Source: a virus | Taxonomy: Duplodnaviria > Heunggongvirae > Uroviricota > Caudoviricetes | Length of the DNA: 35,269 nt | Direction: 5' to 3' (one strand) | Virus record (IMG/VR): IMGVR_UViG_2563366848_000003 | Shown: piece after piece, positions 1,852 to 34,858 of the stretch | Numbering within the stretch: position 1 is the stretch's first letter | Layout: every line of letters starts with the position of its first letter | Made by a program: the position numbers and the translations under genes | The notes under the pieces: generated by a model | The model's database searches: none | Told to the model about the DNA's origin: nothing | What the model saw: the letters and a program-made list of their open reading frames with translations, nothing else

Positions 1852-2267
1852 GTTTTGCCCTGAAACTGGCGCGTGAGATGGGGCGACCCGACTGGCGCGC
1901 CATGCTTGCCGGGATGTCATCCACGGAGTATGCCGACTGGCACCGCTTTTACAGTACCCATTATTTTCATGATGTTCTGCTGGATATGCACTTTTCCGGG
2001 CTGACGTACACCGTGCTCAGCCTGTTTTTCAGCGATCCGGAGATGCATCCGCTGGATTTCAGTCTGCTGAACCGGCGCGAGGCTGACGAAGAGCCTGAAG
2101 ATGATGTGCTGATGCAGAAAGCGGCAGGGCTTGCCGGAGGCGTTCGTTTTGGCCCGGACGGGAATGAAGTTATCCCCGCTTCCCCGGATGTGGCGGACAT
2201 GACGGAGGATGACGTAATGCTGATGACAGTATCAGAAGGGATCGCAGGAGGAGTCCGGTATGGCTGA
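1429..2267 (+). CDS. T: tail assembly chaperone G-T fusion made by programmed -1 ribosomal frameshift
   Basis: The -1 frame downstream of the slippery site has no ATG but is open to 2267 (VFDGELSFALKLAREMGRPDWRAMLAGMSSTEYADWHRFY..., lambda gpT-like). The T frame overlaps the H start at 2260. Confidence 0.85.
1827..1833 (+). other. slippery heptamer G GGA AAG for the G/GT -1 frameshift
   Basis: GGGAAAG sits in the G reading frame as X XXG GGA AAG, 19 nt before the G stop. This is the canonical lambda G-T shift site. Confidence 0.85.
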
Positions 2268-7241: not shown

Positions 7242-10200
7242 ATGGGTAAAGGCAGCAGTAAGGGGCATACCCCGCGCGAAGCGAAGGACAACCTGAAGTC
7301 CACGCAGCTGCTGAGTGTGATCGATGCCATCAGCGAAGGGCCGGTTGAAGGTCCGGTGGATGGATTAAAAAGCGTGCTGCTGAACAGTACGCCGGTGCTG
7401 GACAGTGAGGGGAATACCAATATATCCGGCGTCACGGTGGTGTTCCGGGCCGGTGAGCAGGAGCAGACACCGCCGGAGGGATTTGAATCCTCCGGCTCCG
7501 AGACGGTGCTCGGTACAGAAGTGAAATATGACACGCCGATCACCCGGACCATCACGTCGGCAAACATTGACCGTCTGCGTTTTACTTTCGGCGTGCAGGC
7601 ACTGGTGGAAACCACCTCAAAGGGGGACAGGAATCCATCGGAAGTCCGCCTGCTGGTTCAGATACAACGTAACGGTGGCTGGGTGACGGAAAAAGACATC
7701 ACCATTAAGGGCAAAACCACCTCGCAGTATCTGGCCTCGGTGGTGGTGGGTAACCTGCCGCCGCGCCCGTTCAATATCCGGATGCGCAGGATGACGCCGG
7801 ACAGCACCACAGACCAGCTGCAGAACAAAACGCTCTGGTCGTCATACACCGAAATCATCGATGTGAAACAGTGCTACCCGAACACGGCACTGGTCGGCGT
7901 GCAGGTGGATTCGGAGCAGTTCGGCAGCCAGCAGGTGAGCCGTAATTATCATCTGCGCGGGCGCATTCTGCAGGTGCCGTCGAACTATAACCCGCAGACG
8001 CGGCAATACAGCGGTATCTGGGACGGAACGTTTAAGCCAGCATACAGCAACAACATGGCCTGGTGTCTGTGGGATATGCTGACCCATCCGCGCTACGGCA
8101 TGGGGAAACGTCTTGGTGCGGCGGATGTGGACAAATGGGCGCTGTATGTCATCGGCCAGCATTGCGATCAGTCGGTGCCGGACGGTTTTGGCGGCACGGA
8201 GCCGCGCATCACCTGTAATGCGTACCTGACCACACAGCGCAAGGCGTGGGATGTGCTCAGTGATTTCTGCTCTGCGATGCGCTGTATGCCGGTATGGAAC
8301 GGGCAGACGCTGACGTTCGTGCAGGACCGACCGTCGGATAAGGTGTGGACCTATAACCGCAGTAATGTGGTGATGCCGGATGATGGTGCGCCGTTCCGCT
8401 ACAGCTTCAGCGCCCTGAAGGACCGCCATAATGCCGTTGAGGTGAACTGGATTGACCCGAATAACGGCTGGGAGACGGCGACAGAGCTTGTGGAGGACAC
8501 GCAGGCCATTGCCCGTTACGGTCGTAACGTCACGAAGATGGATGCTTTTGGCTGTACCAGCCGGGGGCAGGCACACCGCGCCGGGCTGTGGCTGATTAAA
8601 ACAGAACTGCTGGAAACGCAGACCGTGGACTTCAGCGTGGGTGCCGAAGGGCTTCGCCATGTACCGGGCGATGTCATTGAAATCTGCGATGATGACTATG
8701 CCGGTATCCGCACCGGCGGGCGCGTGCTGGCGGTAAACAGCCAGACCCGGACGCTGACGCTCGACCGTGAAATCACGCTGCCATCTTCCGGCACCACGCT
8801 GATAAGCCTGGTTGACGGGCAGGGGAGTCCGGTCAGCGTGGAGGTTCAGTCCGTCACCGACGGCGTGAAGGTGAAAGTGAGCCGTGTTCCTGACGGCGTT
8901 GCTGAATACAGCGTATGGGGGCTGAAGCTGCCGACGTTGCGCCAGCGCCTGTTCCGCTGCGTGAGTATCCGTGAGAACGACGACGGCACGTATGCCATCA
9001 CCGCCGTGCAGCATGTACCGGAAAAAGAGGCCATCGTGGATAACGGGGCGCACTTTGACGGCGACCAGAGCGGCACGGTAAATGGTGTCACGCCGCCAGC
9101 GGTGCAGCACCTGACCGCAGAAGTCACCGCAGACAGCGGGGAATACCAGGTGCTGGCCCGCTGGGACACGCCGAAGGTGGTGAAGGGCGTGAGCTTCCTG
9201 CTTCGCCTGACCGTGGCAGCGGATGACGGCCGTGAGCGGCTGGTCAGCACGGCCCGGACGACGGAAACCACTTACCGCTTCACACAACTGGCTCTGGGGA
9301 ACTACAGGCTGACAGTCCGGGCAGTAAATGCGTGGGGGCAGCAGGGCGATCCGGCGTCGGTATCGTTCCGGATTGCCGCACCGGCAGCGCCGTCGCGGAT
9401 TGAGCTGACGCCGGGCTATTTTCAGATAACCGCCACGCCGCATCTTGCGGTTTATGACCCGACGGTACAGTTTGAGTTCTGGTTCTCGGAAAAACGGATT
9501 GCGGATATCAGGCAGGTTGAAACCAGCGCGCGTTATCTTGGTACGGCACTGTACTGGATAGCCGCCAGTATCAATATCAAACCGGGCCATGATTATTATT
9601 TTTACGTTCGCAGTGTGAACACCGTTGGCAAATCGGCATTCGTGGAGGCTGTCGGTCAGCCGAGTGATGATGCATCAGGCTATCTGGATTTTTTCAAAGG
9701 CGAGATAGGGAAAACCCATCTGGCTCAGGAGCTGTGGACGCAGATTGATAACGGTCAGCTTGCGCCTGACCTGGCTGAAATCAGGACGTCCATTACGGAT
9801 GTCAGCAATGAAATCACACAGACCGTCAATAAGAAACTGGAAGACCAGAGTGCAGCGATCCAGCAGATACAGAAGGTTCAGGTTGATACAAATAATAATC
9901 TGAACAGCATGTGGGCTGTGAAGCTGCAACAGATGAAGGACGGACGCCTTTATATTGCGGGTATCGGTGCCGGTATTGAGAATACGCCAGCAGGAATGCA
10001 GAGTCAGGTGCTGCTGGCGGCAGACAGGATTGCGATGATTAATCCTGCGAATGGCAACACAAAACCGATGTTTGTTGGTCAGGGTGATCAGATATTCATG
10101 AATGAAGTGTTCCTGAAGCGCCTGACGGCCCCCACCATTACCAGCGGCGGCAATCCTCCGGCCTTTTCCCTGACACCGGACGGAAAGCTGACCGCTAAAA

Positions 10201-10724
10201 ATGCGGATATCAGTGGCAGTGTGAATGCGAACTCCGGGACGCTCAACAACGTCACGATTAATGAGAACTGTCAGATTAAGGGGAAACTGTCAGCCAATCA
10301 GATTGAAGGCGATATTGTCAAAACGGTCAGCAAGTCTTTCCCCCGCACGAGCACTTATGCCAGTGGCACCATCACGGTAAGAATCAGTGATGATCAGAAA
10401 TTTGACCGGCAGGTCATGATACCGCCAGTGTTATTCCGCGGTGGTAAGCATGAGAATTTCAACAGTAATAACCAACAGTCATACTGGTATTCAACCTGCC
10501 GGTTAAGAGTGACCCGCAATGGTCAGGAGATTTTTAATCAGTCCACGACGGATGCTCAGGGCGTATTTTCCTCCGTTATAGATATGCCTGCCGGACAGGG
10601 GACGCTGACACTGACATTCACCGTATCTTCATCAGGAGCGAATAACTGGACACCAACAACCAGTATCAGCGATCTGCTGGTTGTGGTGATGAAAAAATCC
10701 ACAGCAGGTATCAGTATCAGCTGA
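7242..10724 (+). CDS. J: tail tip central fibre / host specificity protein J
   Basis: 1160-aa ORF; N-terminal ~950 aa read as lambda gpJ ([54 protein letters not shown]...). The last ~250 aa carry the receptor-binding region. Confidence 0.95.
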
Positions 10725-10741
10725 ATTTTATAACCCAGAAC

Positions 10742-10767
10742 GGGCGTCAGAAATGACGCCTTTTTTA
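10742..10767 (+). terminator. rho-independent terminator after J
   Basis: GGCGTCAgaaaTGACGCC hairpin followed by TTTTTT. Confidence 0.6.
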
Positions 10768-10790
10768 TTGCAGAAAAGCGAGAGGTAATT

Positions 10791-11390
10791 ATGCGTAAAC
10801 TTTATGCCGCCATTTTGTCCGCAGCCATCTGTCTGGCCGTATCCGGTGCGCCTGCATGGGCGTCTGAACATCAGTCCACGCTGAGCGCGGGCTATCTTCA
10901 TGCCTCGACGAACGTTTCCGGCAGCGATGATCTGAACGGGATTAACGTGAAATACCGTTATGAGTTTACGGACACGCTGGGAATGGTGACGTCATTCAGC
11001 TATGCAGGAGACAAGAATCGCCAGCTTACCCGTTACAGCGATACCCGCTGGCATGAAGATTCCGTGCGTAACCGCTGGTTCAGCGTAATGGCGGGGCCGT
11101 CTGTGCGCGTGAATGAATGGTTCAGCGCGTATGCGATGGCGGGTGTGGCTTACAGCCGTGTGTCGACTTTCTCCGGGGATTATCTCCGCGTAATTGACAA
11201 CAAGGGGAAAACGCACGACGTGCTGACCGGAAGTGATGACGGTCGCCACAGCAACACGTCTCTGGCGTGGGGAGCTGGCGTGCAGTTTAACCCGACCGAA
11301 TCCGTGGCCATTGATATTGCTTATGAAGGCTCCGGCAGTGGTGACTGGCGCACTGACGGTTTCATCGTGGGTGTCGGTTATAAATTCTGA
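10791..11390 (+). CDS. lom: Lom outer-membrane beta-barrel protein (Ail/Lom family)
   Basis: 199-aa ORF with a signal peptide ([24 protein letters not shown]), alternating beta-strand pattern and C-terminal ...GVGYKF; located after J as in lambda. SD GAGAGG upstream. Confidence 0.9.
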
Positions 11391-11416
11391 TTAGCCAGGT
11401 AACACAGTGTTATGAC

Positions 11417-11443
11417 AGCCCGCCGGTTCAGGCGGGCTTTTTT
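11417..11443 (+). terminator. rho-independent terminator after lom
   Basis: AGCCCGCCggttcaGGCGGGCT followed by TTTTT. Confidence 0.6.
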
Positions 11444-11454
11444 GTGGGGGGAAT

Positions 11455-14349
11455 ATGGCAGTACGGATTTCAGGTGTACTGAAAGATGGCGCAGGTAAGC
11501 CGATACAAAACTGCACCATTCAGCTAAAGGCCAGGCGCAACAGCACCACGGTGGTGGTGAACACAGTGGCCTCAGAAAACCCGGATGAAGCCGGGCGTTA
11601 CACAATGGACGTCGAGTATGGTCAGTACAGCGTCAGTCTGTTGGTGGAGGGATTCCCGCCGTCACACGCCGGGATTATCACCGTATATGAGGACTCAAAG
11701 CCGGGCACACTGAATGATTTCCTCGGTGCAATGACGGAGGATGATGTCCGGCCAGAGGCACTGCGCCGTTTTGAACTGATGGTGGAAGAGGTGGCGCGTA
11801 ACGCGTCCGCAGTGGCACAGAACACGGCAGCCGCGAAGAAGTCAGCCGGCGATGCCGGCACATCTGCCCGTGAGGCGGCAACCCATGCGACTGATGCTGC
11901 AGGCTCAGCACGCGCAGCCAGCACGTCAGCCGGACAGGCCGCTTCGTCGGCTCAGTCAGCGTCTTCCAGCGCAGGAACGGCATCAGCAAAGGCCACTGAA
12001 GCATCAAAAAGTGCTGCCGCTGCAGAGTCCTCAAAAAGCGCGGCGGCCACCAGTGCCGCTGCGGCAAAAACGTCAGAAACGAATGCGGCAGCGTCACAAC
12101 AATCAGCAGCCACTTCAGCATCCACCGCAACCACGAAAGCGTCAGAAGCTGCCACCTCAGCCCGGGATGCGTCGGCTTCAAAAGAGGCGGCAAAATCATC
12201 AGAAACGAGCGCAGCCTCGAGCGCCAGCAGCGCAGCTTCCTCGGCAACGGCGACAGCAAATTCTGCGAAGGCGGCAAAAACGTCCGAGACGAACGCCAAG
12301 GCTTCTGAAACGGCAGCGGGACAGAGTGCCTCAGCTGCGGCAGGCTCAAAAACAGCGGCTGCGTCGTCTGCCAGTGCCGCGTCAACAAGTGCCGGGCAGG
12401 CCTCAGCCAGTGCCACCGCCGCCGGAAAATCGGCAGAAAGTGCTGCATCGTCCGCTTCAACAGCCACAACGAAGGCTGGCGAAGCCGCTGTACAGGCCAG
12501 CGCAGCAGCGAGGTCTGCTTCCGCAGCGAAGACATCCGAAACGAATGCGAAAGCGTCGGAAACCCGTGCAGAATCCTCAAAAACGGCAGCCGCATCGTCC
12601 GCCAGTTCGGCAGCGTCATCGGCATCATCTGCGTCTGCTTCAAAAGATGAGGCGACCAGACAGGCGTCAGCAGCGAAGGGCAGCGCCACGACGGCATCCA
12701 CGAAAGCAACAGAGGCGGCAGGCAGTGCGACGGCAGCATCTCAGAGCAAAACTGCTGCTGAATCCGCTGCGACCCGTGCGGAAGCTGCTGCTGATCGTGC
12801 TGAAGAGATTGCCGGTGCAGTTGCGATGGAAGACGCAAGCCTTACAACTAAAGGTGTTGTGAAACTTAGCAGTGCTGTTGATAGCACCAGTGAATCGCTG
12901 GCCGCAACGCCAAAAGCAGTTAAAGCAGCCAATGACAATGCGAATAGCAGGGTGCCATCTAACCGAAAAGTTAACGGAAAAGCACTGACTGCGGATATAA
13001 CATTAACGCCGAAAGATATTGGTACTTTAAATTCAGTAACGATGTCTTTCTCTGGCGGGGCTGGGTGGTTCAAACTGGCTACGGTTACCATGCCACAAGC
13101 GAGTTCCATCGTTTACATCGCATTGATTGGTGGCGCTGGTTACAACGTCGGTTCCCCACATCAGGCAGGCATTTCAGAACTGGTTCTACGAGCAGGCAAT
13201 GGAAACCCCAAAGGAATTACCGGGGCTTTGTGGAAGCGTACAGCCGTCGGATTAACGAATTTCGCCTGGATCAACACATCCGGCGATACATATGATATTT
13301 ACGTTGAGATTGGCAATTATGCGACTCGTGTAAATATCCATTGGGATTGTACTGCAAATGCGACAGTTTCTATTTATACATCGCCAACATATTCAGCGAG
13401 TAAGCCTTCCAGCGTTACCGATGGTGTTGTTTATACGATGTATAGCACACATCAGAAACCGACGCCGTTAGATATTGGAGCACTGCCAACAACCGGAGGA
13501 ACAGTTTCAGGTCCGTTGTCTGTTACAGGTGGATTAACTGGTTCATTGAATGGTAATGCAAGTACAGCCACGAAATTGCAGACGGCAAGATCTATCGGTG
13601 GAGTTGTTTTCGACGGTTCTGCAAATATTAACCTTCCAGGTGTAAACACTACGGGTAATCAGAACACCACTGGTAATGCTGCAACTGCCACAAAACTACA
13701 GACTGCACGGAATATCAACGGCGTTCCGTTTGACGGCACGAAGGATATTACGCTTACGCCTAAAGATCTGGATGCCTACAGCAAAAGCGAAGTACAGAGC
13801 GCACTGGCGGGCAAACAACCGCTGGACAATACGCTGACTAATTTGAGTGGAAAGGATGTAGCTGGTCTTCTCGCATACCTTGGTTTGGGCGAAACGATAA
13901 ATAAAGCCTCCGGAGCTATGCAGAAATCGGCTAATGGAGCTGATATTTCTGATGTATCAGCCTTCCGAAATGCGCTCCAGTTAGGGACCGCCGCAACACG
14001 AGATGTTGGAGCAGATAATGCCTCGAAGTTACTGGATTTAGACAGCTTCAGGTCAATGATGTCAGGGAATGGCTACATCTACATTCCATGCATTGCGACG
14101 ACAGGAAACCCGGTGAAACTTATGTTGCAGTGGGGAACGGTGGCAACACAAAAGGGAGCTGATGCTGGATATGCCTTACCATTTGCTTTTCCCTATGCAG
14201 GCTTATTTGCGACCGGAAACCGTGGAACATCTGGCTACAATGCCGCGATGAATGTGCGTATTGCCAGCAGAACGCATATCAGTATTCAGAACTGGTCGCC
14301 ATCCGGAGAGGGCACCGAAGATTGTTGTTTTATCGCGCTGGGGTATTAA
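11455..14349 (+). CDS. stf: side tail fibre protein Stf (extended, 964 aa)
   Basis: N-terminus MAVRISGVLKDGAGKPIQNCTIQLKARRNSTTVVVNTVASENPDEAGRY as in lambda Stf; ~300-aa Ala/Ser/Thr-rich region; two phage tail fibre repeat motifs (ATKLQTAR-x-I-x-GV-x-FDG); distinct C-terminal domain ending ...FIALGY. Confidence 0.9.
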   Translation: MAVRISGVLKDGAGKPIQNCTIQLKARRNSTTVVVNTVASENPDEAGRYTMDVEYGQYSVSLLVEGFPPSHAGIITVYEDSKPGTLNDFLGAMTEDDVRPEALRRFELMVEEVARNASAVAQNTAAAKKSAGDAGTSAREAATHATDAAGSARAASTSAGQAASSAQSASSSAGTASAKATEASKSAAAAESSKSAAATSAAAAKTSETNAAASQQSAATSASTATTKASEAATSARDASASKEAAKSSETSAASSASSAASSATATANSAKAAKTSETNAKASETAAGQSASAAAGSKTAAASSASAASTSAGQASASATAAGKSAESAASSASTATTKAGEAAVQASAAARSASAAKTSETNAKASETRAESSKTAAASSASSAASSASSASASKDEATRQASAAKGSATTASTKATEAAGSATAASQSKTAAESAATRAEAAADRAEEIAGAVAMEDASLTTKGVVKLSSAVDSTSESLAATPKAVKAANDNANSRVPSNRKVNGKALTADITLTPKDIGTLNSVTMSFSGGAGWFKLATVTMPQASSIVYIALIGGAGYNVGSPHQAGISELVLRAGNGNPKGITGALWKRTAVGLTNFAWINTSGDTYDIYVEIGNYATRVNIHWDCTANATVSIYTSPTYSASKPSSVTDGVVYTMYSTHQKPTPLDIGALPTTGGTVSGPLSVTGGLTGSLNGNASTATKLQTARSIGGVVFDGSANINLPGVNTTGNQNTTGNAATATKLQTARNINGVPFDGTKDITLTPKDLDAYSKSEVQSALAGKQPLDNTLTNLSGKDVAGLLAYLGLGETINKASGAMQKSANGADISDVSAFRNALQLGTAATRDVGADNASKLLDLDSFRSMMSGNGYIYIPCIATTGNPVKLMLQWGTVATQKGADAGYALPFAFPYAGLFATGNRGTSGYNAAMNVRIASRTHISIQNWSPSGEGTEDCCFIALGY
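11850..12800 (+). repeat. intragenic low-complexity Ala/Ser/Thr coding repeats within stf
   Basis: Reiterated peptide units (AAKTSETNAKASE, SAASSASSAASSA) and matching DNA motifs such as gcggcaaaaacgtc[ac]ga[ag]acgaa at ~12061 and ~12274; similar unit at ~12523. These drive the long shadow ORFs on both strands (11678-12838, 11852-12862, 11952-12701). Confidence 0.8.
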
Positions 14350-21175: not shown

Positions 21176-21220
21176 TTCGTAATGCGAAGGTCGTAGGTTC
21201 GACTCCTATTATCGGCACCA
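21176..21220 (+). other. 45-bp 3' fragment of tRNA-Thr(CGU) (thrW-like): attachment-site remnant
   Basis: attcgtaatgcgaaggtcgtaggttcgactcctattatcggcacca contains the anticodon loop (CGT), T-arm GGTTCGACTCC and the 3' acceptor with CCA, but the preceding 30 nt do not form the D-arm or 5' acceptor, so it is not a complete tRNA gene. Confidence 0.75.
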
Positions 21221-21383
21221 TCTCAACTTCCTCAAACGTCCATATTTGTCCATAAATACCCTGATTTATAAAGACTTTTCTGCTTTTAAGTCCATCTTTG
21301 TCCGTAACCATCCAGTAGAATCCGATACGGAATGTGTATAGGATTGTGTATATGTTTCTGTTCTGTCCTGGATTCCTATACAC

Positions 21384-22553: not shown

Positions 22554-24053
22554 ATGCAAACTTCGAGAGCTATTAATAAAAATGTCGGGGGAAATGACTC
22601 TGAAAAATATCTTTCTAAGCTGTGTGAAAGAACTTTTTTAAGCTTGTGGAGTTATCCAAATGTTTATACTGATGAAGGAAAAAAAACGGCGTCGGGAGAT
22701 GGGAAGGAACTCTGTGATCTTCTAGTTGTATTTGAAAATCATGTCATAATATTTTCCGATAAAGATATTTCGTTTAAGGATTCAGGGGATTTAAAAGTTG
22801 ATTGGGGGCGTTGGGTTAAAAGGGCTGTTATTAAATCCGCAGTTCAACTTTATGGTGCCGAGTCATCATTAAAAGAGAGACCCGGTAGGTTATTTCTTGA
22901 TGCTAAGTGTAATGTCCCTTTTCCAATTAAAGTGCCAAAGTGTGACGAAATTATCGTTCACCGAATTGCTGTTGCAAAGAATGCATCAAAAAAATTCCAA
23001 GAGCATTCTGGCGGTTCTGGGAGTTTGATTATATGTCCGCGCATAGTGGGAAACCAACATTTTGATACTCCGTTTATGATCGGTCAGCCCATTGCTGACA
23101 AGCCTTATGTGCATGTTTTTGATGATATTGCTTTAGATATTATACTTTCTGAACTCGATACAATTGCTGATTTTATAGATTATCTTAGTAAGAAGGAAGA
23201 ATTTATTGCTTCAGGAGGACTAAACTCGGCAGCGGGAGAGGAAGAACTTTTAGCATGGTACTATATAAATGCTAAAGATGGGCGTGAGCCGGGGTTTTAT
23301 ATAGAGAAAGGAGTATCAGCTTTGATTGTTGAGGGGGCCTATGAATCTCTTAAAAACCTTCCTCAGTTTATTAGAGGGAAAGAACTAAATTCTAATTCTT
23401 ATTTTTGGGATGCCTGTATAGAAAATTTTGCGAAACATATGCTTAGTGGGACAATATTGTCCGAAGGGGATTTTTCATTTGATGAGATGACTCGTGGTCT
23501 AAGAATTATGGCATCCGAGACGAGATTTTCAAGGCGTATACTATCAAATGCAATAATTGAAAAAGTCACCTCCATCCCTCATGGGCAAAGAGGTGTTAGA
23601 GTTTTGGTCTCTCCCAGTAACAGCGATAATGGGTATGTTTGGCTAGTGGTTCCGGTGCCAGAATGTTGCACATCATATGATGACTATAGAAAATATCGTA
23701 AAGATACTCTCTCTGTTTACTGTGCTTCAGCAAAGCTACTTTTCCCGGATATGAAATATATAGTTGGAGTTGCCACAGAACCGATGGGGGGGAATGGAGG
23801 GGAAGATATGGTGTTTATTGATTCAACTCAGTGGACAGAGGATGACTACGAAAGAGCTCGAAAAGATAGAGATGAATTTAAAGCTTTACTTCCGGATAAT
23901 ATTAAAAGAACTGATGATCACGATTATCAATTCCCTATTCTTCCTGGAGACTATCCTGAAAAAGAAACTTTAAGGGTTGAAAAGAATAGTAAGGCTAGAA
24001 TAAAACGAATTAAAAAGGCGCAAAAAAAAGCCCGTAGAAATAACAGAAAATGA
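22554..24053 (+). CDS. hypothetical protein (499 aa), cargo at the integrase-proximal position; possible nuclease-like N-terminal region, basic C-terminal tail
   Basis: ATG immediately follows the int stop (TAAATG) with SD AGGGGA; AT-rich. N-terminal segment ELCDLLVVFENHVIIFSDKD is loosely reminiscent of a PD-(D/E)xK core (unverified); C-terminus KNSKARIKRIKKAQKKARRNNRK is highly basic. Confidence 0.7.
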   Translation: MQTSRAINKNVGGNDSEKYLSKLCERTFLSLWSYPNVYTDEGKKTASGDGKELCDLLVVFENHVIIFSDKDISFKDSGDLKVDWGRWVKRAVIKSAVQLYGAESSLKERPGRLFLDAKCNVPFPIKVPKCDEIIVHRIAVAKNASKKFQEHSGGSGSLIICPRIVGNQHFDTPFMIGQPIADKPYVHVFDDIALDIILSELDTIADFIDYLSKKEEFIASGGLNSAAGEEELLAWYYINAKDGREPGFYIEKGVSALIVEGAYESLKNLPQFIRGKELNSNSYFWDACIENFAKHMLSGTILSEGDFSFDEMTRGLRIMASETRFSRRILSNAIIEKVTSIPHGQRGVRVLVSPSNSDNGYVWLVVPVPECCTSYDDYRKYRKDTLSVYCASAKLLFPDMKYIVGVATEPMGGNGGEDMVFIDSTQWTEDDYERARKDRDEFKALLPDNIKRTDDHDYQFPILPGDYPEKETLRVEKNSKARIKRIKKAQKKARRNNRK

Positions 24054-24091: not shown

Positions 24092-24874
24092 TCAATCTTT
24101 GGCGTGTGATTTAAATTTAAATGATATTTTTCTCTTGGTATTTCTTAAGGATTTTGAAATTCGCCATTTTAAATTGAATAAAGTATCCAATAGCTTTTCT
24201 GAGTTCTGCTTATTTAGTAGTCTGTGTTCTTGTCTTATCATAAGGAATATTTCAAGGTATGGGTCGTCAATTTTTTCTTCCAGTTCTTCACAAGAGTAGC
24301 TGTTGACACGTTCAAGAGCGATATATTCCATCCTTATCTCATTTGGTTCCCTTAAACTTGTTTTTTCCCATTCTAATCTAATTGGCTTACTAAAAAGGGA
24401 TATGTTCTCCTTAATATGTGCCATAACACGTCTAAAACGATTGTTAAATTCTTCATTATCAGTATGCATAACTGGTGATTGATTTCCTAATAATGTTGAA
24501 CTTTTTTCTCTTTGGAATTTGTAATATTCCTCTGATACTTTTTTGCTAAAGCTGGCTTGATCTGATTTATTCTTGAAGCTTATATGTTCATAACTATCCG
24601 GACCATATATTTGTTCCATCCAGTGCAACTGACTAAATTGATTGACGGCTTGTTCTAAATCTTTATCTTCTGATGTGTATGTTTTCTGTGATTTTATTTT
24701 GTAGTCGAAAAGTAGTAAGTCGCAAACATCGAAGTAGATTTTGTCATAAGTTCTTAGACGTTCTATTTTTCTATTGTATTTTGACTGGCGAATGGTATTT
24801 AAAAATCCTAGGCAGGATATGATAAAACCACCTATAGAAATATATAAAGAAATTGAAGTGTTATCCTGCACCAA
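24092..24874 (-). CDS. hypothetical membrane-anchored protein (260 aa) with an N-terminal transmembrane helix
   Basis: N-terminus MVQDNTSISLYISIGGFIISCLGFLNTI is a predicted TM helix followed by a charged domain of unknown function. Convergent with the 499-aa gene (38-bp gap); AT-rich. Confidence 0.65.
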   Translation of the reverse strand: MVQDNTSISLYISIGGFIISCLGFLNTIRQSKYNRKIERLRTYDKIYFDVCDLLLFDYKIKSQKTYTSEDKDLEQAVNQFSQLHWMEQIYGPDSYEHISFKNKSDQASFSKKVSEEYYKFQREKSSTLLGNQSPVMHTDNEEFNNRFRRVMAHIKENISLFSKPIRLEWEKTSLREPNEIRMEYIALERVNSYSCEELEEKIDDPYLEIFLMIRQEHRLLNKQNSEKLLDTLFNLKWRISKSLRNTKRKISFKFKSHAKD

Positions 24875-25004: not shown

Positions 25005-25432
25005 GTTTAAGAAGTCGCTTTTAATGCCGTTGCAACGGCGTACTCTGGCCGCGCCGCGAATGGCGCTAGCAGGGATTACAGCGACAGGAAAACACCTGCA
25101 AAACCATGCCTCGTTTGGATGCATTGCTTAAATCGGGAAAAATGACGGTATTTAGGAGGGGCAGGTTACTGAGCGGTAGTTCGGCGCGGTTATGGAGGTA
25201 AATTACACTCTATTCATTCGTGAAATTTTTAAAATTTTTTCACCCATCAAGCAGCGTCAAGCTTGGAATACTTGCTACCACGCTGTTCTGCACTAACCTG
25301 CTGATCTTCGCCCTTGTTCCTTATGTTTCAACAGCGCACCGCAGAGGCGAGATTCCCCCCGTCTTGACCATGCCAGCTCGTTGAAATTTGAAAAGATAAG
25401 CACCATTTAACATCTTAGCGCGCGCTCGTAGC

Positions 25433-25450
25433 CCCGCCACGCCTGCCCGC
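25433..25450. repeat. 18-bp direct repeat ccccgccacgcctgcccg, copy 2
   Basis: Identical to 24987-25004; the flanking sequence diverges from the cos consensus. Confidence 0.8.
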
Positions 25451-25602
25451 TTTATGTAGTGGTTTTCATGCAGGTGCATGAACGGTTCTCATCCATGCCG
25501 CGTGCGGTCTGAGAGGTAAAAATACCAGTACATAAAGTCATGCGGTTTCATGCAGCATAGCCATGCACTCTCAGCATCAACGGGAAAGTCAGAAAGTTGG
25601 CA

Positions 25603-25627
25603 TAAAAAACCGGCATAAAAGCCGGTT
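25603..25627 (-). terminator. rho-independent terminator downstream of the delta-like gene
   Basis: On the minus strand: AACCGGCttttatGCCGGTT followed by TTTTT, about 20 nt after the delta stop. Confidence 0.55.
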
Positions 25628-25646
25628 CGAGGATTGCTTTGAGCCG

Positions 25647-25922
25647 TCAGACAGGAATTTGCTGGCGGTTTGAGAGCCTGGAGGCTGCGCCATATTTTCC
25701 GAGTGTGTGAGCTGACTTCTCTGATTGCTCGCTTGCGGTTTCATCCTTGGTCTCAACCTTGTTAGGCCGGGCAATAATCGTGTCCACGCTCTCCAGTGCG
25801 GTGAATGTGCATGAGCACTCCAGGTTTTTGCACTGATAGTAAGTCCGCTTTATGGATGGGGCCTCATAAAAGCTTGAACGGGCATGTGAGATTGCGCCGC
25901 ACTCAGGACACTGTAAAGCCAT
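25647..25922 (-). CDS. Ogr/Delta-family zinc-finger late transcription activator
   Basis: MALQCPECGAISHARSSFYEAPSIKRTYYQCKNLECSCTFTALESV has the Ogr/Delta C-x2-C-x22-C-x4-C arrangement; start at 25922 with SD GGAGGA 6 nt upstream (the tabulated ORF begins 5 codons earlier). Confidence 0.85.
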   Translation of the reverse strand: MALQCPECGAISHARSSFYEAPSIKRTYYQCKNLECSCTFTALESVDTIIARPNKVETKDETASEQSEKSAHTLGKYGAASRLSNRQQIPV

Positions 25923-26475
25923 AGGCTTCCTCCGCAAGTTTCAGGCGCTTGAGCCTGTCCTGAAAAGTTTTATGCTTCGCCGGAGTGAATCTCTTCGAGG
26001 CATCCATGCGCATTGATGCATCAGGCGATAAACCTGATTCATCAAGGATTTCACGGCAGGACTCAAGCAGTTCTGGAGCATTGAGTTCCGAATAATGCGC
26101 CAGCGCCAAACGCAGCACACGTGCAGCAACATCAAGGCCAAAGGGGCCGTTCAGATAAGGTGCCAGCGCTGAGGTCAGCGCCTTGCCCGAATTTGCCATA
26201 AATTCACTCAAGGCATTATCAACACAGGCATCCACGACACTTCTCTGCGCGTAGAGACCATCATTTGCCGCACAGCTGATCTGCCATTCAAGCACTTCTA
26301 GCTTTTCTCTGAGAGTTTCAACCTGCCAGGCATAATTGTAAGGCTTATCTGCAGACAGCAACAATGCCTGCAGCCGTAGTTGGGCTGTACTTTGCTCGTT
26401 GCGAAGTGATAGCCAGCTCTGAGAAGCATCCCGGTAGTGATGCAGCGCTTCCTTAGGGGTAATTGTGGTGTCCAT
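25903..26475 (-). CDS. psu: Psu-like protein (polarity suppression / capsid decoration homologue)
   Basis: 190 aa, the same length as P4 Psu; recalled similarity in the C-terminal half (ALTSALAP..., KRFTPAKHKTF vs P4 ALAAALAP..., EKFTPAQNMIF). Confidence 0.65.
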   Translation of the reverse strand: MDTTITPKEALHHYRDASQSWLSLRNEQSTAQLRLQALLLSADKPYNYAWQVETLREKLEVLEWQISCAANDGLYAQRSVVDACVDNALSEFMANSGKALTSALAPYLNGPFGLDVAARVLRLALAHYSELNAPELLESCREILDESGLSPDASMRMDASKRFTPAKHKTFQDRLKRLKLAEEAYGFTVS

Positions 26476-26569
26476 CAGCTTTGCTGCGTATTACCGTGAA
26501 GGAGATCGGTGAGTAACATCGATGGAGATCGGTTCGTGTCACTTTCACAGAACCGTTTTTAAATTACCT

Positions 26570-27319
26570 TCACTGATCTCCTTCGGTCAACGGAGATTGT
26601 ATTTTCCGCATTGATTCTCCTTTAAGTTCGATCTTGATACTGCCATGAACCAGTCGATCTAGGATGGCATCCGCATGTGTGGAGTCTCCGATCATTTTGT
26701 ACCAGTTTTCCACCGGCAACTGGCTCACTACGATGATTGAGCCTCGTTGGTACATCAGATCCACTATTTCCAGCAGGTCGCTACGCTGTTCTGATGAGAG
26801 AGGTTCCAGCCCCCAGTCATCCAGAAGCAGCAGATCGCTATTATTCAGCCTGGTCAAAAGTTTGCTGTATCTTCCATCAGCATGCCCCTGATAGCACTGT
26901 TCCATCAGCGCTTTAAGGCGATAATAGTAGACCTTGTATCCCTGTCGGCAGGCATTATGACCAAGTGCACATGCCAGGAACGTTTTACCGCTGCCGGTGG
27001 CCCCGGTCAGTAAAATATTTTGTTTCAGGGTTAACCAGTTTCCCTGACTGAGTGAACGGATGAGGGCCCTGTCCAGCCCTCTATTGTTACGATAATCCAG
27101 CTTTGATAACTCAGCATTAAGTCTGAACCGTGCATGTTTGATCAGACGCTCTGCCTTCCTGTTTTCACGGCAGGTTAGTTCTTCTGCTGTCAGTAATGAC
27201 AGGCGTTCTTCGAAGCCCAGCTCCTGGTATGTGCCCGGCTGAGCAAGTTGCTTTTTAAGCGCATCACGGAAGCCGGTGAGTTTAAGTGCGGTCAGTTGTT
27301 CGTAAAGATGATTCATCAT
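26570..27319 (-). CDS. istB: IS21-family transposition helper ATPase IstB
   Basis: 249 aa with Walker A GATGSGKT and Walker B LLLLDDWG, IstB/DnaC-like. Confidence 0.93.
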   Translation of the reverse strand: MMNHLYEQLTALKLTGFRDALKKQLAQPGTYQELGFEERLSLLTAEELTCRENRKAERLIKHARFRLNAELSKLDYRNNRGLDRALIRSLSQGNWLTLKQNILLTGATGSGKTFLACALGHNACRQGYKVYYYRLKALMEQCYQGHADGRYSKLLTRLNNSDLLLLDDWGLEPLSSEQRSDLLEIVDLMYQRGSIIVVSQLPVENWYKMIGDSTHADAILDRLVHGSIKIELKGESMRKIQSPLTEGDQ

Positions 27320-27330
27320 TGGATCCCGTA

Positions 27331-28872
27331 TCAGTGGTAATACTCACTGCCGCGTACGTTTTCGTGTTCCATCGTGGATAACAGATCTGGTTTTGGATCC
27401 TGAACAGGTTGTTTATCCAGACCTTTTTCCAGGATCGATTTAATACCTGACAGACGCCATACCTTTGTTTTCAGAGCTCTTGCACATGCTGCATTAAGTC
27501 TGGCTTTACTGTATTTTTTATGAAGGTTCAGGAGTCCAAGGCAGAAGCGATAGCTTTGTTCCGGATGTGGACGAGAGTTCAGTATATGAAGCACATAACT
27601 ATGAGTTTCACTGCCTATGTGCCCCGCCCATTCCAGAAGACGCTCTGGCGTCCAGGTGGCATGCTGTCGATGAGCTTCAGGCATGTGCTCGTTGCGGGTA
27701 CTGTAGCCATAAGTACGCTTGCGCGGGTGCACAGCAACCTCCTGCCCCTGATTGAAGAGTCTTACCAGTTCTCCGGAGATCCATGCTTCCAGTTGCTGGC
27801 CTAACAGCGAACATGGAACCGAGTAGTAATGTTTGTCGATTTCCACGTGGTAATCGGCATGAACTCTGACTTTCTTCACCAGGGTGTAACTGTAACTGGC
27901 TTCAGGAAGAGGCTTCAGTGCGGGTTTATCAAGCTGGATGAAGAGTTCTGCACGTGAATAACCCAACTTCTGCATTATTTTGTTATTCAGTCTTTCCAGC
28001 AACTCCCGAATGCGCTGATTAAGCGATGCAAGGCTGTAGAAGATCTCATGCCTGATTCGGGCCATGATCCAGCGTTCAACAACCTGAACGCCAACTTCAG
28101 CTTTGGCTTTATCTTTCGGTTTACGTGGCCGCGCAGGCAAAACTGCGACATTATAATGCTCAAGCATCTGCTGGTAGGTAGGGTTAACGTCAGGATCATA
28201 CTTACATGCCCTGGATGTGGCGCTTTTCAGATTGTCCGGAACAACAAGTTCAGGAACGCCACCCAACCACTGGAAGCAGCGAACATGACTCATCACCCAG
28301 TCTTCAAGCTGCTGAGACCAGGTGGCCTCTGCCCATGTGTAACTTGATGCCCCGAGAACAGCTACGATGACCTGAGCAGTTCTTATTTCTCCGGTCTCAG
28401 GGTCGGTAACGCCAACGGTAGGTCCACAGTAATCAACGAAAAGTTTTTCGCCAGCTTTATGTACCTGACGCATTGATGGTGAAGTGGTTTTGAGCCATTC
28501 ACGGTACATCCGGCAGTAATGGTTATAGCTGTAAAAACCGCCTGGATTACGCTCACAGTATTCTTCCCAGAGTAGCTGCAGCGTCACGCATTTATTACGC
28601 AGTTCCCGGTGTACTGTAGCCCAGTCAGGCAGAGAGTGCTTCTTCATCTTAACCTGGGTCTGAAGGAACGCATGTTTTAGTTTTGTATCATCCCATCCTG
28701 TAGGTAAGGGCCACTGCTTTATGCCAAGTTGAGCCGCCCGATTAGCATATCTGGATACAACGGAAGGGGAGATTGCAAGACTACGACCAATTTGTCGATG
28801 GCTGAGTCCAACACCGTATTTAAGCCTAAGAATTTCTTTAAGTTTTCTCATAGAAATTGGAACTGTTGGCAT
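27331..28872 (-). CDS. istA: IS21-family transposase IstA
   Basis: 513 aa with an N-terminal HTH (LKYGVGLSHRQIGRSLAISPSVVSRY) and a DDE core; located 11 nt upstream of istB. Confidence 0.93.
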   Translation of the reverse strand: MPTVPISMRKLKEILRLKYGVGLSHRQIGRSLAISPSVVSRYANRAAQLGIKQWPLPTGWDDTKLKHAFLQTQVKMKKHSLPDWATVHRELRNKCVTLQLLWEEYCERNPGGFYSYNHYCRMYREWLKTTSPSMRQVHKAGEKLFVDYCGPTVGVTDPETGEIRTAQVIVAVLGASSYTWAEATWSQQLEDWVMSHVRCFQWLGGVPELVVPDNLKSATSRACKYDPDVNPTYQQMLEHYNVAVLPARPRKPKDKAKAEVGVQVVERWIMARIRHEIFYSLASLNQRIRELLERLNNKIMQKLGYSRAELFIQLDKPALKPLPEASYSYTLVKKVRVHADYHVEIDKHYYSVPCSLLGQQLEAWISGELVRLFNQGQEVAVHPRKRTYGYSTRNEHMPEAHRQHATWTPERLLEWAGHIGSETHSYVLHILNSRPHPEQSYRFCLGLLNLHKKYSKARLNAACARALKTKVWRLSGIKSILEKGLDKQPVQDPKPDLLSTMEHENVRGSEYYH

Positions 28873-29050
28873 AGGTATCCTTTACCGGAATGGCAAAAGA
28901 TACAGATCAACACACCTGTGAAGTTCCAATAACATTGATGGAGATCACTGAATAACAAAATGAGTCAAAAGTGATCTCCATCGATGTTATTCAGCGATCT
29001 GTTCAAATGTTATTACCCGATCTCGATGGAAGTTATTGAGTGATCTCCTT

Positions 29051-29812
29051 TCATGAAAATACGCAGCTTTGCCCCTTCTTCGCTTTTTCACGCTGTTTTT
29101 GTATGCGGATTTGCGCCGCCGGGCTGGGGGCGTTCTGAATATCCTGATAGGCACTATTATCAGCAAGTACACCAATTTTATTCAGGAAAGGGTCACTCTG
29201 CAGAGAGGCATTCTGTTTCAACGCCGGATTAGTGATTGAAGAAGTAATGAAATCCCGCAATAGCGTTTCAGGATCATTCACAGAATGGACAACACCAATT
29301 ACAGAGCTGGCACTTCTCCCTTTTGTCACTTTGAGAAGGCTTAAAAGCTGGATAAGGGTTTGACCATGCTGCTTCATAAAATCATGCCAAAGCTGGTTAA
29401 CATGGGTTTCGATAAGATTATCATGTGCCTGAATGTAACCACGGGCCAGTTCCGCCGTTTTCCATGGGAGATACTCATTCTCTCCGGCATGGGCCGCAAG
29501 CAGATCATCAAACTCGTCGAGTGTTTCACGCCCCAGGGCAATCTCAGCCCTTAGTTTTTTCATTTTCGGCGTTACCTGTCCCTGGTTTTCATGAAACATC
29601 TGACGCCATTCTTCATTTTGCGCCTTTGCCTCCGTTTCCGTTTCTACACGGCGTTTACGGATTGTTGCGAGCATCGCAGCAGCATCAATTTGTTTGCGAC
29701 GGGCTTCCGTCCAGGCTGATTTGGCAGCATTCACTTTTTCAAGCGCCTGTTGTGTCGCAGCAGGGATAGAAATATCAGCAGTCGATTTATTGCTCTGGTC
29801 TGGGATAGTCAT
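29051..29812 (-). CDS. sid: Sid-like capsid size determination protein, C-terminus altered by the IS21 insertion
   Basis: N-terminus MTIPDQSNKSTADISIPAATQQALEKVNAAKSAW resembles P4 Sid; about 250 aa, coiled-coil rich. The last 4 codons and stop (CVFS*) are read from the IS end. Confidence 0.6.
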   Translation of the reverse strand: MTIPDQSNKSTADISIPAATQQALEKVNAAKSAWTEARRKQIDAAAMLATIRKRRVETETEAKAQNEEWRQMFHENQGQVTPKMKKLRAEIALGRETLDEFDDLLAAHAGENEYLPWKTAELARGYIQAHDNLIETHVNQLWHDFMKQHGQTLIQLLSLLKVTKGRSASSVIGVVHSVNDPETLLRDFITSSITNPALKQNASLQSDPFLNKIGVLADNSAYQDIQNAPSPAAQIRIQKQREKAKKGQSCVFS

Positions 29813-30049
29813 GTCAGCACCTTGTTGTTTGTGTTGGTGTCAATTGTGCTGTGATGCATACAAAGCCGCCATTGAACGCCATTGTGCGAGCGACAAGACA
29901 AAGACCTCTTTTGGCTAGCCAAGAAAGGCCTCGTTTAACTGAGTCAGTTTCAGACTTACATTAACTGTTCACTACTATTCACTTAGGTAAAAAAATAGAT
30001 AATACAGTAGGTTATAAGGTGAAGGGTTGGCATGGCAGTATTCATCGAC

Positions 30050-30067
30050 TGTTCATAACTGTTCACA
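30050..30067. promoter_or_regulatory. TGT-N12-ACA motif (Ogr/Delta-type activator site) upstream of sid
   Basis: TGTtcataactgttcACA, ~240 bp upstream of the sid start in an AT-rich divergent intergenic region that also holds repeated ctgttca / ctattcac motifs (29943-29968, 30046-30070, 30131-30170). Confidence 0.3.
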
Positions 30068-30729
30068 TGGGAATAAAATTATTTATGGTATTTTTTCATA
30101 ATGGATGGTTTTTTATTCCTCGTAGCTATTTGTTTTTTGCTCCTCACCACTATTCACCCTTATTCAGTAGTATTCGACAGGCGCTGAAATAGACTGCCTG
30201 TTATTGCCGGGAAATAACATTTTCGCCTCTGACCATGGTGTTGCATTTCATACTGATTTTTATAAAACTAGAACTGTCCGGTTCTTTATGGATTCATGCG
30301 GATATATTTTAAGATTTAAGATGAAATTATTTAATATCAAGGTTTTTATGCAGACCCAATGTTTATAAGTTGGATGCGATTCAAAAATATGCCCGGAAAT
30401 TGGGGCCTGCAATGCAAGGCCTCGTGTAGAAGTTGTACTGCCTTGCTGTATTGGCGGTGGGGTCAGCACTATCAGGTGCAATGACCCATGGGGTAGTTAA
30501 CTCATTGATGAATGGTAGTTCCTATTAATGCTCCTATATTTATAGCCCGCAGGCATAGTATTTATTATGTTGTTTTATATGGTTTGATCGGGTTTTAAGT
30601 TTCATGAAATCAATATGTGACGCTAAATAAATAATGCGTGCGCAGGCGGTTTATATACACATAATAAGGAACTACCTGAACCCGGATAAATTCATCAGGT
30701 CTGTTGTGGAAATTAAAGAGGGTAGATAA

Positions 30730-30990
30730 ATGCGTAATATTTCTGTGTCTGCGCCAGCTCCGGCTGCGCCATTATTTCCTGTACCGAACCAGCATGAACG
30801 ATTTTTACGCCTGCCTGAGGTGATGCACTTATGCGGGTTGTCCCGTTCGACCATTTACGACCTGATCAGTCGCGATGCGTTTCCGAAGCAGATCCCGCTT
30901 GGCGGTAAAAATGTTGCCTGGGCACAGTCTGAGGTCAGCGCATGGATGGCGGACCGTATCAGCGCCCGTGGGCGGGGATGTGATGCATGA
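30730..30990 (+). CDS. alpA: AlpA/Vis-family DNA-binding regulator (phage-island excisionase-like)
   Basis: [53 protein letters not shown] is the AlpA helix-turn-helix signature; SD AGAGGG 8 nt upstream of the ATG at 30730. Confidence 0.8.
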
Positions 30991-31117
30991 TGATACCTGA
31001 ATACAATAAATACCTTTTTTCAGGCTTGCTTACTGTCGTCATTTCCAGGTATAGTTTTTCCGCTGTCGCAAAATCGGCAGCCGGAATTGGCGTTCCGCGA
31101 AACTCAATGGCGACACC

Positions 31118-31141
31118 AGACGCGCCAGGCGTCTTTTTTTT
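31118..31141 (+). terminator. rho-independent terminator after alpA
   Basis: AGACGCgccagGCGTCT followed by TTTTTTTT. Confidence 0.55.
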
Positions 31142-31349
31142 CGTCGTAGCTCAGGCACACCCATTTTCCGGGCTGTGGTGTTTGTGTGTACACCGTAGTT
31201 CTTTCGAGATAATGGCAGTCCGGGCGGGGCAGCCTTCGGGCTGGCCGGTATCCATTGAGGCCGGTTACGCCAACCCCGTTCGGGCTGCCACCAGTGAAAT
31301 TGGCGTTTCCGGTGGTAGCAATAACCGCTACTCAATGGAGGCTGCCATC

Positions 31350-34716: not shown

Positions 34717-34732
34717 TCCTATTATCGCACCA
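34717..34732 (+). repeat. imperfect direct repeat of the tRNA-Thr 3' end (putative right att core of the P4-like element)
   Basis: tcctattatcgcacca versus tcctattatcggcacca at 21204-21220 (one-base deletion); lies between the primase terminator and the host LysR gene in an AT-rich stretch. Confidence 0.55.
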
Positions 34733-34858
34733 TTAAAATCAAAGAGTTACCCCATATTTAAATACACCACGTTTCCTCCTGTGCCGTATTTGTGCCATTG
34801 TAACCTTGGCAATTCATCAAAATACTGTTCTGACATCAGGCAGTGCAGGTGCAGACAT

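Follow-up and report, generated by a model that had tools for sequence, protein, structure and literature searches.

An ISEc12 insertion between sid and psu in a P4-like phage satellite

Introduction

An insertion sequence that sits exactly where the stop codon of one late gene meets the start codon of the next raises three questions: whether it got there by transposition, whether it chose the place, and what it does to the satellite that carries it. The window analysed here is a stretch of 35,269 nucleotides (IMG/VR record IMGVR_UViG_2563366848_000003). An earlier note, made from its sequence, had described an IS21-family element at the junction of the satellite genes sid and psu and suggested that the late genes were impaired. 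The analysis below indicates that this is very probably a recent transposition of ISEc12 into a P4-like satellite prophage integrated at a thrW-type attachment site, that the site was hit by chance, and that the output of psu and delta is probably lowered.

The inserted element

The IS21-family assignment was correct, and the element could be named from its sequence. It is a complete ISEc12 of 2,581 bp (26485..29065, minus strand), with ends 5'-TG...CA-3' and 100% full-length identity to annotated E. coli copies. Copies at 100% over the full length are present in many E. coli records, on chromosomes as well as plasmids, and 1,366 of 5,426 E. coli genomes have an ISEc12 copy with at least 80% of the element covered. 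Both genes are intact and stand in the order typical of the family, istA (HTH and DDE/rve) followed by istB (AAA+ ATPase). The istA gene (27331..28872, minus strand) encodes a 513-aa DDE transposase with Pfam rve and Mu-transpos_C_2 domains, which scores 310.5 bits against NF033546, the NCBIfam equivalog for IS21 family transposases (cut-off 160). The istB gene (26570..27319, minus strand) encodes a 249-aa AAA+ helper ATPase (Pfam IstB_IS21, E = 2.2e-67), which scores 270 bits against the NCBIfam equivalog NF038214 (cut-off 200); in RefSeq the protein has 248 aa, with the second Met as start.

The ends of the element read TGCGTATT...AATACGCA, as expected of IS21-family terminal repeats; the first 8 nt, TGCGTATT, are common to both ends, and the same ends were found in six further ISEc12 copies. 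The terminal inverted repeats had been called imperfect, and on alignment 22 of the first 30 columns and 52 of all 76 aligned columns are identical. The istA-side (left) terminal region (28929..29065, minus strand) holds three direct, 23-nt-spaced repeats at 28973-29046 and one inverted copy at 28929-28957, and the istB-side (right) region (26485..26588, minus strand) holds two direct repeats at 26490-26541 and one inverted copy at 26572-26588. At both ends the repeats contain GGAGATC with 23-nt spacing, at positions 18/41 and 19/42 from the two termini.

ISEc12 resembles IS21 and IS5376 (PMC10122671) in its istA-istB operon, its terminal repeats built of repeated units (L1/L2 and R1/R2 in the prototypes), its terminal CA, its short target duplications and its lack of strong target specificity, and differs from them in two additions, a third direct repeat on the left and, at either end, one more inverted repeat copy. 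Compared with RefSeq E. coli ISEc12, the copy in the window has the same 2,581-bp sequence, istA/istB and ends, without any difference in the element itself; only the place of insertion is new, none of the 5,426 complete E. coli genomes searched having it. It is identical to active-looking copies elsewhere, has both open reading frames intact, and may be competent for transposition.

Target duplication and empty site

The element is flanked by two copies of the 7-bp sequence GCTTTGC, one on the psu side (26478..26484) and one on the sid side (29066..29072), and eight IS-free loci have this sequence just once. The earlier note had seen this duplication; the span that it gave, 26477-29072, agrees with the duplication at its end, but its start should be one base further right. 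Duplications of 7 bp are usual for ISEc12: they lie within the IS21-family range of 4-8 bp, and other ISEc12 copies have duplications of 5-8 bp, with 7 bp in 5 of the 17 sites that have one, compared with the 5-bp duplications of IS5376 in vitro (PMC10122671). There is also an apparent 9-bp repeat, CAGCTTTGC, in which the right-side copy takes in the terminal CA of the IS, a dinucleotide present in every ISEc12 copy.

When the IS and one duplicate were removed in silico, the result matched the IS-free locus L011, which is the same satellite in a different assembly, at 100.000% over 10,301 bp with 0 mismatches or gaps. The earlier note had predicted that this removal would restore a compact junction, and comparison with IS-free relatives confirmed it: eight loci carry the predicted junction GGGGCAAAGCTGATGGAC, in which the sid TGA overlaps the psu ATG, and read ...GAAGGGGCAAAGCTGATGGACACC... 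in single copy. An IS-free relative at 91% identity is likewise collinear across the insertion site. The reconstruction of the empty site is proven and not just plausible.

The window comes from a draft scaffold (KB733130.1; assembly GCA_000352725.1), and short-read assemblies often misplace IS copies, which brings up the idea that a repeated IS was placed here by mistake. Both junctions carry a perfect 7-bp duplication of a sequence that the eight IS-free relatives have once; transposition leaves such a mark, and a misjoin does not. In addition, an independent Logan assembly of SRR639973 encodes the same chimeric Sid of 253 aa, on a contig that ends just inside the IS. An assembly artefact is therefore barely credible, and the insertion is a real, cleanly documented event of an ordinary kind.

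Choice of the target site

The exactness of the position had been taken to be significant, and one explanation would be that ISEc12 targets the sequence of the sid/psu boundary, in which case the position is no accident and should recur. The best BLAST matches to the psu-IS junction seemed to point this way, as they ran 10-12 nt into flanks like CATCAGCTTT. These matches were ranked by flank extension, which is a selection bias. The CATCAG..CTTT flank that seemed to be shared, from the junction BLAST and five fetched copies, proved to be an artefact of that ranking and was gone in 88 distinct ISEc12 sites, an unselected and independent sample from metagenome contigs: in none of the 88 does CATCAG occur within 20 nt of the end, or CTTT within 8 nt. 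The sites have only a mild bias, with G at -2 (50%) and G or C at -1 (75%). The sid/psu-ISEc12 junction, and ISEc12 next to any psu, is absent from all complete E. coli genomes searched (n=5,426), and IS21-family elements integrate in vitro without strong target specificity (PMC10122671). Targeting of the boundary is thus very improbable and, with no target motif in the 88 sites, the exact position at the junction is due to chance. A scan of genome contigs with the IS end returned one contig end, which is uninformative.

The host satellite

The element interrupts a P4-like satellite. Pfam matches identify the core set of integrase, psu, delta, sid, alpA, epsilon/ash and the alpha primase-helicase, and both the set and its order are the same in relatives. 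A CI RNA of the C4 family was found (Rfam C4, 84.6 bits against a gathering score of 45), together with a P2/P4-type cos-like site that matches 16 of the 19 nt of the P4 cohesive end and has 170 nt of flanking similarity; terminase may cut there. The attL core TCCTATTATCGGCACCAT (21204..21221) is the 3' terminus of a tRNA-Thr fragment of thrW type; in the relative L001 a tRNA-Thr adjoins the integrase. The attR core TCCTATTATCG-CACCAT lies at 34717..34733.

Like P4 (NC_001609), the satellite encodes homologous Sid, Psu and Ogr/Delta zinc-finger activator proteins, with 23-39% identity to their P4 counterparts, in a compact overlapping operon downstream of a TGT-N12-ACA region and next to cos. 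The gene order differs: P4 has sid-delta-psu (sid 9583-10317, delta 10314-10814, psu 10888-11460), whereas this satellite and all its close relatives have sid-psu-delta. The delta protein here is a single domain of 91 aa, and that of P4 a double domain of 166 aa.

With the IS the satellite is 13,512 bp long, and without it 10,924 bp, so that the insertion has made it 24% longer. The small P4 capsid fits a genome of 11.6 kb (PMC7552001), and the median of P4-like satellites is 10 kb (PMC8628076).

The neighbourhood gave some further observations. The prophage at 1-14.7 kb looks lambdoid, judged solely by ORF sizes and by tail-protein names under BLAST matches. There is no helper within the window. 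Two uncharacterised hotspot ORFs had no match in PADLOC, Pfam or NCBIfam.

Consequences for sid, psu and delta

ISEc12 appears to have entered at the 1-nt overlap of the sid stop and psu start codons, duplicating the 7 bp GCTTTGC. The earlier note had given Sid four IS-encoded residues, and this is borne out when the protein is aligned with Sid from an IS-free relative: sid (29051..29812, minus strand) now encodes 253 aa, the native 249 aa of the IS-free copies followed by CVFS, and its stop codon lies inside the IS. The added codons, TGC GTA TTT TCA TGA, are supplied by the istA-side IS end. The protein matches phrog_6165 (E = 1.4e-78) and has 23% identity to P4 Sid (E = 4e-12). The C-terminal helix of Sid binds gpN (PMC7552001), and CVFS adds four residues after this helix. 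An annotation of the 253-aa Sid should make clear that the protein proper has 249 aa and that the tail comes from the IS.

On the other side, the istB-side IS end abuts psu, with 9 nt left to the psu ATG. The psu gene (25903..26475, minus strand) keeps its ATG and an intact open reading frame of 190 aa (Pfam Psu, E = 2.2e-38; 28% identity to P4 Psu). Its Shine-Dalgarno sequence, GAAGGGG, which is 8 nt upstream in the IS-free form, is now beyond the far side of the IS, and the overlap of its start with the sid stop is lost. The delta gene (25647..25922, minus strand; Pfam Ogr_Delta, E = 4.4e-16; 91 aa in relatives also) shares 20 nt with the 3' end of psu. A strong Shine-Dalgarno sequence, GGAGG, belongs to delta itself and lies 6 nt upstream of the delta ATG.

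The presumed sid promoter region (29845..29900, minus strand) was located by a pattern search and contains two TGT-N12-ACA motifs, at 29845-29862 and 29883-29900. From what is known of P2/P4 late promoters, we take these putative sites to be of the kind bound by Ogr/Delta activators. The IS has moved psu and delta 2,588 bp further from this region. The earlier note had said that they were cut off from the promoter; the physical separation stands, and the functional reading was worded too strongly. Immobilisation, which it had also raised, is no more than a possibility; int, alpA, ash/epsilon, the CI RNA, alpha, cos-like sites and both att cores are in place. It had also missed two points that favour impairment, namely the lost psu ribosome-binding site and the growth of the satellite to 13.5 kb.

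Transcription through and out of the IS was then considered on the strand of the operon. An intrinsic terminator inside the IS was looked for and not found: a consensus scan of the minus strand from 25400 to 30800 found no terminator-like site, and the hairpins at both IS ends have no U-tracts after them. There is one minus-strand promoter-like match in the IS, which is weak (9/12) and within chance expectation. A hybrid promoter reading outward from the istB-side end, which would have counted against impairment, was rejected: the best -35-like hexamer, TTCACG, lies 10 nt from the end without an acceptable -10 at 16-18 nt, and since the IS ends just 9 nt from the psu ATG, transcription would start inside psu. 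In IS21 itself the right end carries only a -35 box, and a single copy has a weak promoter (PMC10122671). Because the IS is on the minus strand, in the same orientation as sid, psu and delta, and no terminator-like site was found on that strand, read-through is possible, and transcripts that start at the sid promoter, or at the istAB promoter of the IS, may extend into psu and delta.

In an alternative reading, the insertion is nearly neutral. The sid promoter, with a weak istAB promoter, would read through to psu and delta, and the satellite would still redirect capsids, activate late genes and transfer with the IS as a passenger. All five genes lie on one strand with no terminator-like site in the IS, the psu frame is intact, as is the delta frame with its Shine-Dalgarno sequence, and the satellite still has every other core component and both att cores. 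Set against this are the loss of the psu ribosome-binding site and of the coupling to sid, and some 180 nt plus 95 nt of untranslated RNA at the IS ends that would be open to Rho. The genome of 13.5 kb is 116% of that of P4, an argument that is weak, as P4-like elements of more than 13 kb are on record (PMC13612085, PMC8628076). Distribution also speaks against near-neutrality. The chimeric 253-aa Sid is on 3 contigs only in the public collection, and the IS-bearing allele has been seen in just a single strain lineage, while the index has the identical Psu in 193 blocks, and in those contigs that were read it belongs to IS-free satellites with at least 4 different left flanks. Restriction to one lineage is the pattern expected of an allele that does not spread, and recency alone could also explain it: there are zero substitutions relative to the IS-free L011, and the insertion is probably recent. 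Taken together, a near-neutral insertion is possible but doubtful.

In the preferred reading, a chance insertion that lowers late-gene output, psu output would drop strongly because the ribosome-binding site and translational coupling are lost, and delta output would fall to the level of transcription that survives passage through the IS. P4 late promoters can respond to the Ogr of a helper (PMC7552001), so the satellite may in part manage without delta. Activation of helper late genes, capsid decoration and perhaps small-capsid packaging would be weakened, leaving a satellite with poor transfer, though not one that can be called dead.

Since the IS is co-oriented and directly behind sid, the sid promoter may drive istA-istB. 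If so, an Ogr/Delta-dependent promoter could make transposition inducible by a helper and let the IS exit in particles; or the insertion could be a first step of domestication, which would leave the two hotspot genes frozen in the chromosome with transfer disabled. Either version is improbable.

Precedents and use

Classical IS1 and IS2 insertions in the gal and lac operons are polar, and there too an IS lies between cistrons, so that the genes behind it lose both the promoter and translational coupling; in the case here polarity is a prediction. IS elements have been described in otherwise complete P4-like satellites of Enterobacter cloacae, with IS3, IS5 and IS903B in 5 of 16 satellites (PMC13612085); those lie next to accessory regions, and ISEc12 lies inside the late operon. 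A large survey called transposable elements "almost nonexistent" in P4 and P2 elements (PMC13586616). An IS inside a P4-like satellite is thus uncommon and not new in kind, and both the IS and the kind of satellite are known.

The locus has little importance beyond annotation, and is a clean, datable IS disruption of a P4-like late operon, where transposable elements are reported to be rare. It also comes with a natural isogenic partner in public assemblies, an IS-free copy without a single difference in the 10,301 bases compared; the identical IS-free satellite is carried by GCA_040341215.1, for example. This pair could be used to gauge how much psu/delta expression and genome size weigh in satellite transfer.

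An ISEc12 copy between sid and psu

Five ORFs lie on the minus strand at 25.6-29.8 kb, in transcriptional order 253, 513, 249, 190 and 91-96 aa long. The first (29812-29051) is Sid of a P4-like satellite; its Psu-fold match in Pfam is weaker than that of the 190-aa ORF, as expected because Sid is a known homologue of Psu (PMC7552001). The 513-aa ORF (28872-27331) matches Pfam rve/Mu-transposase-C and the 249-aa ORF (27319-26570) Pfam IstB_IS21, and the NCBIfam equivalogs for IS21 transposase and IS21 helper ATPase both passed their cut-offs. Psu (26475-25903; Pfam, E = 2.2e-38) and delta (25922/25937-25647; Pfam Ogr_Delta) follow.

The IS21-family element that the earlier note had seen at the sid/psu junction, and proposed to name from databases, is ISEc12 itself: 26485-29065 (2,581 bp) is 100% identical over its full length to E. 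coli sequences that carry the annotation "IS21-like element ISEc12", found on many chromosomes and plasmids. A copy with at least 80% coverage is present in 1,366 of 5,426 complete E. coli genomes. The ends, TGCGTATT... and ...AATACGCA, are common to six further copies compared. The terminal inverted repeats are imperfect, as had been noted, with 22 of the first 30 aligned columns identical and 52 of 76 overall. Repeat units containing GGAGATC recur at a 23-nt spacing; the istA end has three of them and the istB end two, and each end has one additional inverted unit, a layout like the multi-repeat one reported in the IS21 family (PMC10122671).

Target-site duplication and reconstructed empty site

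A copy of GCTTTGC lies on either side of the IS, at 26478-26484 and 29066-29072, which bears out the 7-bp duplication described earlier. The span first given, 26477-29072, is right at its right edge and one base out at its left, which should be 26478. An apparent 9-bp repeat, CAGCTTTGC, arises where the right-side copy takes in the terminal CA of the IS.

The exact Psu of the window was looked up in a public collection, where it is indexed in 193 blocks. Nine places were listed from 24 contigs: one is the window's own record, and eight are IS-free satellites with a common gene set (int 389 aa, 499 aa, 259 aa, delta 91 aa, psu 190 aa, sid 249 aa, alpA, ash, 73 aa, DUF5375 and alpha). An empty site was built in silico, by deleting the IS together with one copy of GCTTTGC, and compared with these eight loci. 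It matched L011, the IS-free locus of the same satellite in another assembly (GCA_040341215.1), at 100.000% identity over 10,301 bp with 0 mismatches and 0 gaps, and the other seven at 99.88-99.98%. The compact sid-psu junction predicted by excision, caaagcTGATGgac, is the one found in 8/8 IS-free loci (...GAAGAAGGGGCAAAGCTGATGGACACC...). CP070914, which is IS-free and less closely related (91% identity), is collinear over the insertion site. The comparison with IS-free relatives suggested earlier thus confirms the structural interpretation of the insertion to the limit of sequence evidence.

Position, age and spread

Among BLAST junction matches the targets seemed to share a CATCAG..CTTT flank. 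Because such matches are ranked by extension into the flank, metagenome contigs were instead scanned with the IS end, giving an unselected sample of 120 loci with 88 distinct flanks. The shared flank was gone: none of the 88 had CATCAG within 20 nt of the end, and none had CTTT within 8 nt. The sole bias was mild, at the istB-side end (G at -2 in 50%, G or C at -1 in 75%). Full-length copies with both flanks had duplications of 5 bp (n=9), 6 bp (n=2), 7 bp (n=5) and 8 bp (n=1), so a 7-bp duplication is ordinary for ISEc12. The other 13/30 full-length copies lack one, probably because copies recombined or contigs are chimeric. The exact position at the sid/psu junction is best read as chance.

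The IS-bearing element shows no substitution relative to L011, and its IS is identical to other copies; both point to a recent insertion. In the public collection just three contigs encode the chimeric 253-aa Sid: scaffold KB733130.1 of GCA_000352725.1, evidently where the window comes from, and contigs in Logan assemblies of SRR639973. BLAST with the ISEc12-psu junction found it in no complete E. coli genome. The IS-free satellite has at least four kinds of left flank (a proA-type aldehyde dehydrogenase, two different integrases and a PEMT-family gene), and in the window the left flank is a prophage; these varied flanks indicate that the IS-free satellite is recently mobile.

IS elements within P4-like satellites of Enterobacter cloacae are on record (PMC13612085), and a large survey describes P4 and P2 elements as almost free of transposable elements, which it attributes to packaging constraints (PMC13586616). 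ISEc12 in this satellite is therefore an uncommon case of a known kind.

Consequences for Sid, Psu and delta

The Sid reading frame runs into the IS (TGC GTA TTT TCA TGA), adding CVFS to a protein that in IS-free relatives is 249 aa long and stops at the junction; four IS-encoded residues had been expected. They come after the C-terminal helix, which binds gpN (PMC7552001).

The duplication puts GCAAAGCTG back in front of the psu ATG and so preserves it. The psu Shine-Dalgarno, GAAGGGG, which in the empty site stands 8 nt ahead of the start, now lies past the IS, and nothing comparable is present in the sequence that replaces it, ...CACGGTAATACGCAGCAAAGCTG. The sid/psu stop/start overlap is gone as well. 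Delta retains its own GGAGG, 6 nt ahead of the ATG.

The earlier note held that psu and delta are cut off from the sid promoter. Physically they are: the insertion adds 2,588 bp between them and the sid upstream region. That region holds two TGT-N12-ACA motifs, which from P2/P4 late promoters we presume to be Ogr/Delta activator sites. As a transcriptional block the claim is somewhat overstated: ISEc12 is oriented with the operon, a consensus scan of the minus strand found no terminator-like site in all of 25400-30800, and neither IS-end hairpin is followed by a U-tract. Read-through to psu-delta, from the sid promoter or an IS promoter, is thus possible; the scan gave one weak promoter-like match (9/12), in istB, within the chance number. 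The IS21 right end is known to bear only a -35 box (PMC10122671). An outward hybrid promoter serving psu is ruled out, since the IS ends 9 nt before the psu ATG and any start would fall inside psu.

Our best estimate from these features is that Psu synthesis would be strongly reduced and delta output reduced to some extent, leaving the satellite handicapped, not dead. The functional interpretation made earlier is plausible, if somewhat overstated. Two speculative ideas have no support yet: that a helper might induce the transposase through the sid promoter, and that the insertion might be a first move towards locking the satellite's cargo genes into the chromosome.

RNA folding of the two IS ends gave strong hairpins from inverted repeat units (z = -4.8 and -3.9). 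In the istA leader (28873-29065, minus strand; z = -4.8) units 28928-28949 and 28970-28991 can form a hairpin of ~22 bp, and a further possible hairpin, of 12 bp, buries the istA Shine-Dalgarno (GUAUCUUUUGCC...GGUAAAGGAUAC). Such folding could shield transposase from translation on read-through transcripts. GATC occurs in every terminal repeat unit (26485-26590, 28929-29065), 8 times in the terminal 250 nt and 23 times in 2,581 bp against ~10 expected, so Dam methylation may modulate IstA binding.

The satellite and its surroundings

The satellite is of the P4-like family and distant from phage P4 (NC_001609), with protein identities of 23-39%. Its lineage has the late order sid-psu-delta and a single-domain delta of 91 aa overlapping psu by 20 nt, whereas P4 has sid-delta-psu and a double-domain delta of 166 aa. 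The attL core (21204-21221) is a thrW-type tRNA-Thr 3' fragment; from there to the end of the attR core at 34717-34733 the satellite measures 13,512 bp as it stands and would be 10,924 bp with the IS removed. P4's 11.6 kb is what its small capsid fits (PMC7552001), and the P4-like median is 10 kb (PMC8628076). The attR core is one G short of attL (TCCTATTATCG-CACCAT versus TCCTATTATCGGCACCAT).

The remaining needed parts are present: int, alpA, ash/epsilon, C4-family CI RNA, isrK, DUF5375, alpha and cos-like sites. Rfam places isrK at 31062-31139 (plus, 72.6 bits) and the C4 antisense RNA, the P4 CI-type immunity RNA, at 31208-31295 (plus, 84.6 bits), both within a 185-aa ORF (Pfam Phage_ASH; RefSeq Icd-like).

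The interval from delta to the cargo genes holds two cos-like sequences spaced by 444 bp, both in a stretch 100% identical to L011; P4 itself has a single cos. That at 24981-24999 matches 16/19 nt of the P4 cohesive end, and its surroundings are 71% similar to the P4 cos flank over 170 nt; that at 25425-25443 is weaker.

The cargo ORFs of 499 aa (22554-24053, plus; sole match phrog_18195, "unknown function") and 260 aa (24092-24874, minus; no profile match) had no Pfam, PADLOC or NCBIfam match. Both occupy the int-to-cos position, known in P4-like satellites as a hotspot for defence genes (PMC9122126), and the two are candidate uncharacterised defence genes.

The window contains no intact tRNA. 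In 1-21221 the satellite is preceded in tandem by a lambdoid-looking prophage, with only the tRNA-Thr 3' fragment (~21185-21221) between them. The prophage's large ORFs of tail type (2260-4839, 7242-10724, 11455-14349) are followed by an accessory region with DUF262, ParA and DUF4113 genes.
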